From a virus (Duplodnaviria > Heunggongvirae > Uroviricota > Caudoviricetes): a stretch of DNA of 8,928 bases. The stretch's first letter is position 1. Each line of letters begins with the position of its first letter. Shown here one piece after another: positions 7,561 to 8,806 of this stretch. Under the pieces are notes generated by a model, which worked only from the letters and a program-made list of their open reading frames with translations, was not told the origin of the DNA and searched no databases. The DNA lies in the IMG/VR virus record IMGVR_UViG_2657245131_000016. The stretch is one strand, 5' to 3'. The translations under genes and the position numbers were made by a program.

Positions 7561-8553
7561 GTGCGGGTATTACTTCGACCTGTTCCGGTACCGGAACTTG
7601 GGTTGGTGGTCCTTAAACCAGGCCGTGAATCCATGCAGGTATTCCATAACCCTCGAGTGCTTGTGGAGCCGGAACCGAAAAGCATGCGCGGTCTGCCGTC
7701 CGGCATCGTCCCTGCCGTTCGCCAGCCGCTGGCGGAGGATAAATCATTACTGCCGTTTTTCAGCAATGAGCGTGTGATTCGTGCTGTTGGTGGCGCTGGT
7801 GCACTGTCTGACTGGCTGTTGCGTCATGTCAAATCCTGCCAGTGGCCTCATGGTGACTATCATCACAGTGAAACCGTTATTCACCGTTATGGTACCGGCG
7901 CAATGGTGTTGTGCTGGCACTGCGACAACCAGCTGCGTGACCAGACATCCGAATCACTCGAGCAACTTGCTCATCAAAACCTGTCAGCATGGATGATTGA
8001 CGTCATCGGTCACGCAATAAGCGGTACGCAGGAGCGTGAATTATCTCTGGCTGAATTATCCTGGTGGGCGGTCCGCAATCAGGTGGCGGACGCGCTACCG
8101 GAAGCGGTATTACGTCGTTCGCTGGGGTTGCGTGCGGAAAAAATCCGCTCAGTGTACCGTGAAAGCGACATCGTACCGGGAGAGCAGACCGCCACCATCA
8201 TACTGAAGCAGCGCACAAAAAATCTTGCGCCGCTGCCTCACGCCCACCAGCAAAACCCGCCACAGGAAAAGACGGTGGTCAGCATTGCCGTTGATCCGGA
8301 GTCACCGGCTCAGTATCTCCAGCGCCAGAAACCACAACGGGAAGAGATGCCTGTATACACGCGCTGGGTAAAAACGCAGAAATGCATGACGTGCGGTAAT
8401 CAGGCAGATGATCCGCATCACATCATTGGTCATGGACTGGGAGGGATGGGAACAAAGGCTGATGATTTGTTTGTTATTCCGCTGTGCCGTAAAATTTCGT
8501 GGCTTCATGTCAAAACACGCCAATGTGGAAATCGGTCTTGCCCTGCGTTCTGA
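7561..8553 (+). CDS. DUF968-domain prophage protein, YdfU-like
   Basis: The C-terminal Cys/His motif [36 protein letters not shown] is characteristic of the DUF968 family as I recall it, and the gene lies in the nin/Q-proximal position. Start taken as GTG 7561; the first in-frame ATG (7633) has no Shine-Dalgarno. Confidence 0.7.
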
Positions 8554-8806
8554 CCGCTGGGCGGGCGCGGATTTCTGGGAGCAGCAGGGCAGGCGCGTCA
8601 GCCTGGACGATATCCTGCAGCGCGCTGATGTGGTGACGGTGGGGATTGACGGCGGGGGCCTGGATGATCTGCTGGGAATGTACGTGATTGGCCGTGACAG
8701 GGAAACCCGCGAATGGCTGGGCTGGGGCCATGCCTGGGTGCATGAAACCGCGGTGGTCAGACGGAAGAGTGAGGCATCCCGGTTTCAGGATTTTGTGGCC
8801 TTGTAG
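8507..8806 (+). pseudogene. truncated ORF ending at the IS junction; product uncertain
   Basis: The frame is open from 8408 and its stop TAG (8804-8806) lies in the first bases of the IS terminal repeat. No Shine-Dalgarno at the candidate ATG 8507 or GTG 8525. It contains the motif [22 protein letters not shown], reminiscent of the first acidic motif of RNase-H-fold nucleases (RuvC-like resolvases, terminase nuclease domains). By Qin gene order a Q-like antiterminator would be expected here. Confidence 0.35.

Follow-up and report, generated by a model that had tools for sequence, protein, structure and literature searches.

Overlapping open reading frames beside an IS3-family element in an Escherichia coli O121:H19 prophage: a probable deletion and IS scar that retains a piece of a terminase gene

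In a prophage of Escherichia coli O121:H19 an open reading frame (ORF) overlaps the 3' end of a DUF968 gene and runs into an insertion sequence (IS), and the locus raises the question of what this ORF represents. A first-pass annotation had described the overlap and the end in the IS terminal repeat, and had taken the ORF for either a frameshifted continuation of DUF968 or a separate nuclease or Q-like gene that began here and was cut by the IS. The description is accurate: the quoted peptides are encoded here, 146 nt (8408-8553) are shared with the 3' end of the DUF968 ORF (7561-8553), and the stop codon, TAG at 8804-8806, is supplied by the outermost 5 nt of the IS, whose first base is 8802. 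The ORF itself is, with a probability of about 0.95, not a gene but a scar of prophage decay, in which a scrap of a terminase large subunit (TerL) gene was joined to a truncated DUF968 gene by a deletion and was cut by the IS on its other side. This reading is built on observed identities, breakpoints, missing segments and motif homology. The window is the whole stretch of DNA analysed, 8,928 nt in length, and positions refer to it unless another segment is named. The features of the locus are the following.

7561-8493, plus strand: first 933 nt (codons 1-311) of a DUF968 / His-Me-finger (HNH) gene, the native part ending in ...VIPLCRK (nucleotide identity)
8408-8806, plus strand: ORF of 132 amino acids with an ATG start
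8408-8494, plus strand: first 29 codons of the 132-aa ORF, which are out-of-frame DUF968 DNA (frame analysis and start of the PHROGs match)
8493-8494, no strand: deletion junction, DUF968 ...CCGTAAA / ATTTCGTGG... TerL (BLAST ends and base-by-base comparison)
8494-8553, plus strand: foreign tail of the chimeric 330-aa DUF968 ORF, 19 codons and a TGA stop (8551-8553), which is TerL DNA read in the wrong frame
8494-8801, plus strand: internal fragment of a TerL gene, nt 912-1219 of 1662; codons 8495-8800 correspond to amino acids 305-406 of 553 (nucleotide identity)
8642-8659, plus strand: GIDGGG motif; its Asp codon (8648-8650) encodes TerL D356, first of the catalytic Asp residues in the nuclease domain (phmmer alignment to 6z6d_A)
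8802-8928, plus strand: left end of a 1258-bp IS3-family IS (TGTAGTGGCACAC...), with the orfA start at 8866, continuing past the end of the window (PGAP and terminal repeats)

The window is part of a degraded lambdoid, effector-carrying (paa, nleA, nleH, nleF) prophage of STEC O121:H19. It is identical over all 8928 nt to E. coli 2014C-4423 (NZ_CP027454.1), for which coordinates in the segment used (L001) minus 1440 give window coordinates. The prophage begins with IS600, ydfC, repressor/cro-like genes, ydaT, the replication genes and DUF1627. These are followed by a fimbrial pseudogene, paa, hokD and two small ORFs, then by DUF968, a 'terminase large subunit' pseudogene and the IS3-family element, and the order ends with a truncated lom, tail-fibre genes, nleA, nleH1-2 and nleF.

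When 7561-8928 was compared with 5426 complete E. coli genomes by megablast, eight more genomes carried the region at 99.9-100% identity. Five of the nine carriers are labelled O121 or O121:H19, and no serotype is listed for the other four; the nine appear to represent one lineage. The two junctions of the locus, 8493|8494 and 8801|8802, are found together, each within one unbroken match, in the same 9 of the 5426 complete genomes, and none of the 5426 has just one of them. The junction search also gave seven extra records in which the IS is placed 610 bp further downstream, and these pointed to a sibling prophage.

Other parts of the prophage differ in their state of preservation. The window begins within a 1264-bp copy of IS600 (window 1-296; L001 473-1736) that is missing from the sibling prophage; its 3-bp GGT target duplication identifies a simple insertion. 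This copy lies in the last codons of ydfC (289-507, minus strand), the C-terminus of which has changed from ...TYPR to ...TYLR. A frameshifted fimbrial-protein pseudogene (4790-5323) and an intact gene for the AcfC-family adhesin paa (5484-6242) form a cargo between the replication module and hokD that is also found in the O103 and 2014C-3061 relatives. A full-length match to the Rfam sok antitoxin RNA (103.9 bits) lies directly upstream of hokD (6431-6580 and 6578-6733, both on the plus strand), and together they look like an intact hok/sok-type type I toxin-antitoxin locus.

The DUF968 gene is identical to an intact gene as far as position 8493 and not beyond. O103 strain ML775 has an intact 1056-nt gene for 351 amino acids (L002 6001-7056), the first 933 nt of which show 100% identity with window 7561-8493, and hundreds of genomes match only positions 1-933 of the 7561-8928 query, that is window 7561-8493, at 99.9-100% identity. 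At the intact locus in ML775, DUF968 is followed by rusA, Q, tRNA-Ile, tRNA-Arg, a TerB-like pseudogene, DUF3927 and an SASA esterase. After CRK the intact protein continues with CHNELHAGVKDFEEKHGSQLLLLIRFLMHARNSGVLKWKA, and in the window its last 40 amino acids are replaced by 19 unrelated residues, so that C-H-N-E-L-H and a further 34 residues are gone. The loss is visible in the domain matches. The window protein scores 171.6 bits against Pfam PF06147, above the gathering score (cut-off 27.8), and covers profile positions 1-138 of 171 only, against 214.7 bits and positions 1-169 for the intact homologue. PHROG 96 ('HNH endonuclease') matches the window protein with E = 3e-146 over profile positions 1-298 of 334. 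The HNHc_6 match falls from 31.6 bits in the intact protein to 14.5 bits in the window copy, below the cut-off of 26.6.

DUF968 has been placed among the His-Me finger (HNH) families together with DUF1364/YbcO, in group 7 of the classification (PMC5714182), and another paper describes it as the fusion of an Orf-like domain with a zinc-finger HNH motif (PMC4118853). The window gene resembles the DUF968/YdfU-type His-Me finger (HNH) proteins of lambdoid prophages (PF06147) in its first 311 amino acids, which are identical to those of the intact 351-aa member, and in its ninR-like position downstream of the replication genes and hokD. It differs from them in the zinc-finger HNH motif (CxxC ... 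DPHH ... CxxCHNxxH), which is incomplete: CMTC, DPHH and C-R-K are kept, but the C-R-K-C pair is left without its second Cys, and the beta-beta-alpha-metal motif has lost H-N-E-L-H. RefSeq/PGAP retains the 330-aa product as protein WP_001370670.1.

The reading frames explain why two overlapping ORFs are seen. DUF968 nt 933 completes codon 311 (...C-R-K), and the next base, TerL nt 912, is a third codon position. Read as a first position in the DUF968 frame, it puts the TerL DNA out of register, which gives the 19-aa tail and the stop at 8551-8553. The C-terminus that had been called atypical is thus foreign, and the protein that had seemed plausible in the other frame is TerL. A discontinuity had been suspected at 8480-8510 and is found there, with its exact breakpoint at 8493|8494.

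It had been proposed that a simple frameshift in this interval split a single long protein, of which the 8408-8806 frame would be the original continuation. Such a frameshift would account for two ORFs overlapping in different frames and for the unusual DUF968 C-terminus. The intact protein, however, continues after codon 311 (...CRKCHNELHAGV...) for only 40 residues, to be followed by rusA. Its 3' end has no match within the window in any frame with up to three mismatches, and the 132-aa ORF is without similarity to the 351-aa DUF968 protein (BLASTP E = 1.7). The downstream frame instead shares 100% identity with TerL, which in the sibling prophage is a gene about 10.7 kb distant. At intact loci DUF968 (351 aa) and TerL (553 aa) are two separate genes, the intact DUF968 homologues do not end where the 7561-8553 frame stops, and the fragment downstream has a match of its own. 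Given the missing 3' end, the null BLASTP result, the TerL identity and the arrangement in the sibling, the frameshift is rejected; the chance that it is correct is close to nil.

The identity of the downstream part was established with a shorter query (8470-8815). More than 1200 genomes match this query only from position 25 onward, the best of them up to position 332, which corresponds to window 8494-8801, and the matches lie within coding sequences annotated 'terminase large subunit'. The TerL coding sequence of strain 2013C-3277 (L003 9001-9308, within the CDS at 8090-9751) is identical at 308/308 nt, and the translation of 8495-8800 is identical to amino acids 305-406 of its 553-aa product. 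Three PHROGs profiles for the terminase large subunit (35587, 2699 and 9) match the 8494-8801 fragment with E = 4.5e-29, 1.7e-28 and 9e-16. Against the whole 132-aa ORF the terminase profiles give E = 2.7e-29, 1.1e-28 and 8.1e-16, with matches that start only at residue 29. The PHROGs matches and direct nucleotide identity were used in place of Pfam because the TerL_nuclease model scores just 40 bits on the full-length parent; with Pfam, neither the 132-aa ORF nor the 102-aa in-frame fragment matched any family at E <= 1. A partial terminase pseudogene is already known at this place from the RefSeq/PGAP annotation, where exactly 8495-8800 is labelled 'terminase large subunit, incomplete, missing N-terminus and C-terminus'.

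Comparison of the frames shows that codons 1-29 of the ORF are part of no native protein. From codon 30 onward the ORF is not due to chance, since it follows the native frame of the TerL gene, is 100% identical in nucleotide sequence to intact copies and gives the PHROGs matches. Two antisense ORFs in the region (8510-8902 and 8302-8523, both on the minus strand) match no Pfam family and were treated as presumably incidental.

In the intact parent the Pfam domains TerL_ATPase (PF03354) and TerL_nuclease (PF20441) cover residues 63-224 and 276-535, and the fragment runs from the end of the linker between ATPase and nuclease into the RNase-H-like nuclease domain, of which it covers the first part. 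As it starts at amino acid 305, the packaging ATPase domain with its Walker A/B motifs is absent. The GIDGGG motif had been described as RNase-H-fold-like, and the structural comparison agrees. The intact TerL aligns with the sequence of the HK97 TerL crystal structure (6z6d_A) over residues 84-534 with E = 9e-10, and phmmer pairs the GIDGGG segment with GLDLSARNDL of HK97 TerL. The aligned Asp has chain number 312 and native number D302, the chain being offset by a 10-residue tag; the offset is confirmed by GIDPSG/AFDRW at chain 398 (D388) and GKIDP/GRIDG at chain 481 (D471). D302, D388 and D471 form the catalytic centre of the RNase-H-like fold in HK97 TerL (PMC9410871). The fragment holds one of the three (D356); the IS cut at amino acid 406 comes before D442 and D525, which are absent from the window. 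It thus resembles an HK97-type TerL (6Z6D) in being amino acids 305-406 of a full-length E. coli prophage TerL with an Asp that corresponds to D302, and differs from it in having 102 of 553 codons left, from which the ATPase domain, the second and third catalytic Asp and the native start and stop are all missing.

These results also bear on the suggestion that a separate small gene, for a RuvC-like nuclease or a Q-like antiterminator, starts at about 8408 and has lost only its 3' end to the IS. An ATG is present at 8408, the GIDGGG motif is of the RNase-H type, and rusA and Q do follow DUF968 in intact lambdoid prophages. The first 29 residues are nevertheless out-of-frame DUF968 DNA, and the homologous part is an internal piece of TerL from which both ends are missing. 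No RuvC or Q family was matched by the ORF or the fragment in Pfam at E <= 1, and the real rusA and Q lie within the 10.7 kb that has been deleted. What stands of the suggestion is that a nuclease coding sequence has been cut by the IS; the gene start at 8408 and the RuvC, RusA or Q identity are rejected, and the profile search that had been proposed is positive for terminase with PHROGs and negative for RuvC and Q with Pfam. That a separate gene began here is very improbable.

The scar reading is carried further by the comparison with the sibling, a less eroded prophage of strain 2014C-3061 (L006; NZ_CP027548.1), which is collinear with 2014C-4423 by BLAST. The sibling matches window 297-8493 at 99.8% identity over 8.2 kb. 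It then has 10,714 bp of its own between the positions corresponding to 8493 and 8494, matches 8494-8801 at 100%, has 610 bp of its own, carries the 1258-bp IS at 100% identity and has another 1,557 bp of its own, after which lom and the tail-fibre genes match at 97.4%. According to the sibling annotation, the 10,714 bp missing from the window begin with the 3' end of DUF968, rusA, Q, tRNA-Ile/Arg, a TerB-like gene, DUF3927 and an esterase. They continue with genes for a holin, a lysozyme and a spanin-type lysis protein, perC-like, ylcI, an HNH gene, terS and the 5' end of TerL. Both BLAST matches end or begin exactly at 8493|8494, and no base is shared between them in a base-by-base comparison; the junction is blunt, with neither an IS nor microhomology.

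The sibling is damaged in its own ways. Its DUF968 and rusA genes are annotated as frameshifted (NZ_CP027548.1 18302-19723), and a second IS3-family element splits its phage HNH gene upstream of terS. In another lineage, then, the same prophage has eroded independently.

The IS on the right spans L001 10242-11499 with the termini TGTAGTGG...CCACTACA. Its ends are TG...CA imperfect terminal inverted repeats (25/40 matching), its length of 1258 bp fits the IS3 family (about 1.2-1.3 kb), and PGAP labels it 'IS3 family transposase, programmed frameshift'. In 2014C-4423 it has TerL on its left and an N-terminally truncated Lom on its right. A 3-bp target-site duplication is absent in both genomes, the flanks being CCT/TTG here and TGG/GTA in the sibling, which would fit deletions in the flanks, or recombination, later than the insertion.

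Copies of the element are present at about six per O121 genome. In the junction search it was found at seven places per record, one other TerL copy included, and a 97.8% relative carries the PGAP label 'ISEc31 family'. ISCfr6 is reported in six copies from O121:H19 strain 51104 (PMC9397093), and the copy number fits this count; ISCfr6 and ISEc31 are candidate names. A match to the Rfam 'isrC Hfq-binding RNA' (59.7 bits, 8870-8928, plus strand), truncated where the window ends, falls at the beginning of IS orfA and is IS sequence, not an independent sRNA gene.

Mapped on the sibling, the structure would have evolved through three deletions. In the first, 10.7 kb would have been lost and codon 311 of the DUF968/HNH gene fused directly to TerL nt 912. 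This would have removed the DUF968 3' end, rusA, Q, the tRNAs, the esterase, the holin, lysozyme and spanin genes, the phage HNH gene, terS and the TerL ATPase domain. The IS3-family element would have been present just downstream of TerL before its flanks were lost. The second and third deletions would then have cost it 610 bp of DNA on the left and 1,557 bp on the right; its left end now meets TerL nt 1219 and its right end the middle of lom. The surviving TerL frame stays open backwards through DUF968 DNA to an incidental ATG at 8408 and runs forwards to the TAG in the end of the IS. The order of the events is probable rather than observed, and order and number rest on parsimony, the sibling being a contemporary relative and not an ancestor.

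IS-mediated adjacent deletion leaves just such a pattern, in which nested losses start at the two ends of an IS that is itself kept. O121:H19 is reported to carry iee and many IS3-family copies, and PMC9943667 and PMC9397093 cite Kusumoto et al. 2011 for deletions of IS-flanking DNA associated with IEE in EHEC/STEC prophages. We infer that the losses on the two flanks of the IS were adjacent deletions of the IS3-transposase/IEE type, a process known as active in O121:H19. The locus is like such cases in that an intact IS without a target duplication lies between non-contiguous prophage DNA, with nested extra DNA on both sides in the sibling. It is unlike them in that the end state alone is seen here, and in that the 10.7-kb deletion has neither an IS nor microhomology at its junction. 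IEE-type end joining is described as microhomology-mediated, which is not obviously compatible with the blunt junction at 8493|8494; the 10.7-kb deletion may have been a separate event of illegitimate recombination.

It can be argued that the chimeric products, the 330-aa re-tailed DUF968 or a TerL nuclease fragment of about 100-130 amino acids, are expressed and have acquired a function. Both frames are open, the structure is kept in all nine carrier complete genomes at 99.9-100% identity, and PGAP keeps the 330-aa protein. Near-identity among nine genomes of apparently one lineage is uninformative about selection, however. The fragment has a single catalytic Asp and no ATPase domain, the HNH motif is without its second half (CHNELH), and the late-gene activator Q is deleted. 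An acquired function is highly unlikely in the light of these losses, and both chimeric ORFs are predicted to lack one. In a specific version, equally far-fetched, the TerL stub or the re-tailed DUF968 would be translated and would hinder, as a decoy or dominant-negative factor, the packaging of co-resident HK97-like prophages; superinfecting HK97-like phages would be another possible target. If true, it would be a case of an exapted pseudogene fragment in inter-phage competition in O121:H19.

With the scar as the preferred reading, the outcome is mainly one of correct annotation. The overlapping ORF is a scar left by deletion and an IS in ordinary prophage decay, and the 330-aa 'DUF968 domain-containing protein' of RefSeq is a truncated chimera whose HNH motif is broken. 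Because Q, the lysis genes and the packaging genes have been lost, the prophage that carries paa, nleA, nleH and nleF in O121:H19 is immobilised. The nested deletions around one IS, seen against the sibling, give a clean textbook case of IS-driven prophage erosion in an IS-excision-enhancer lineage.
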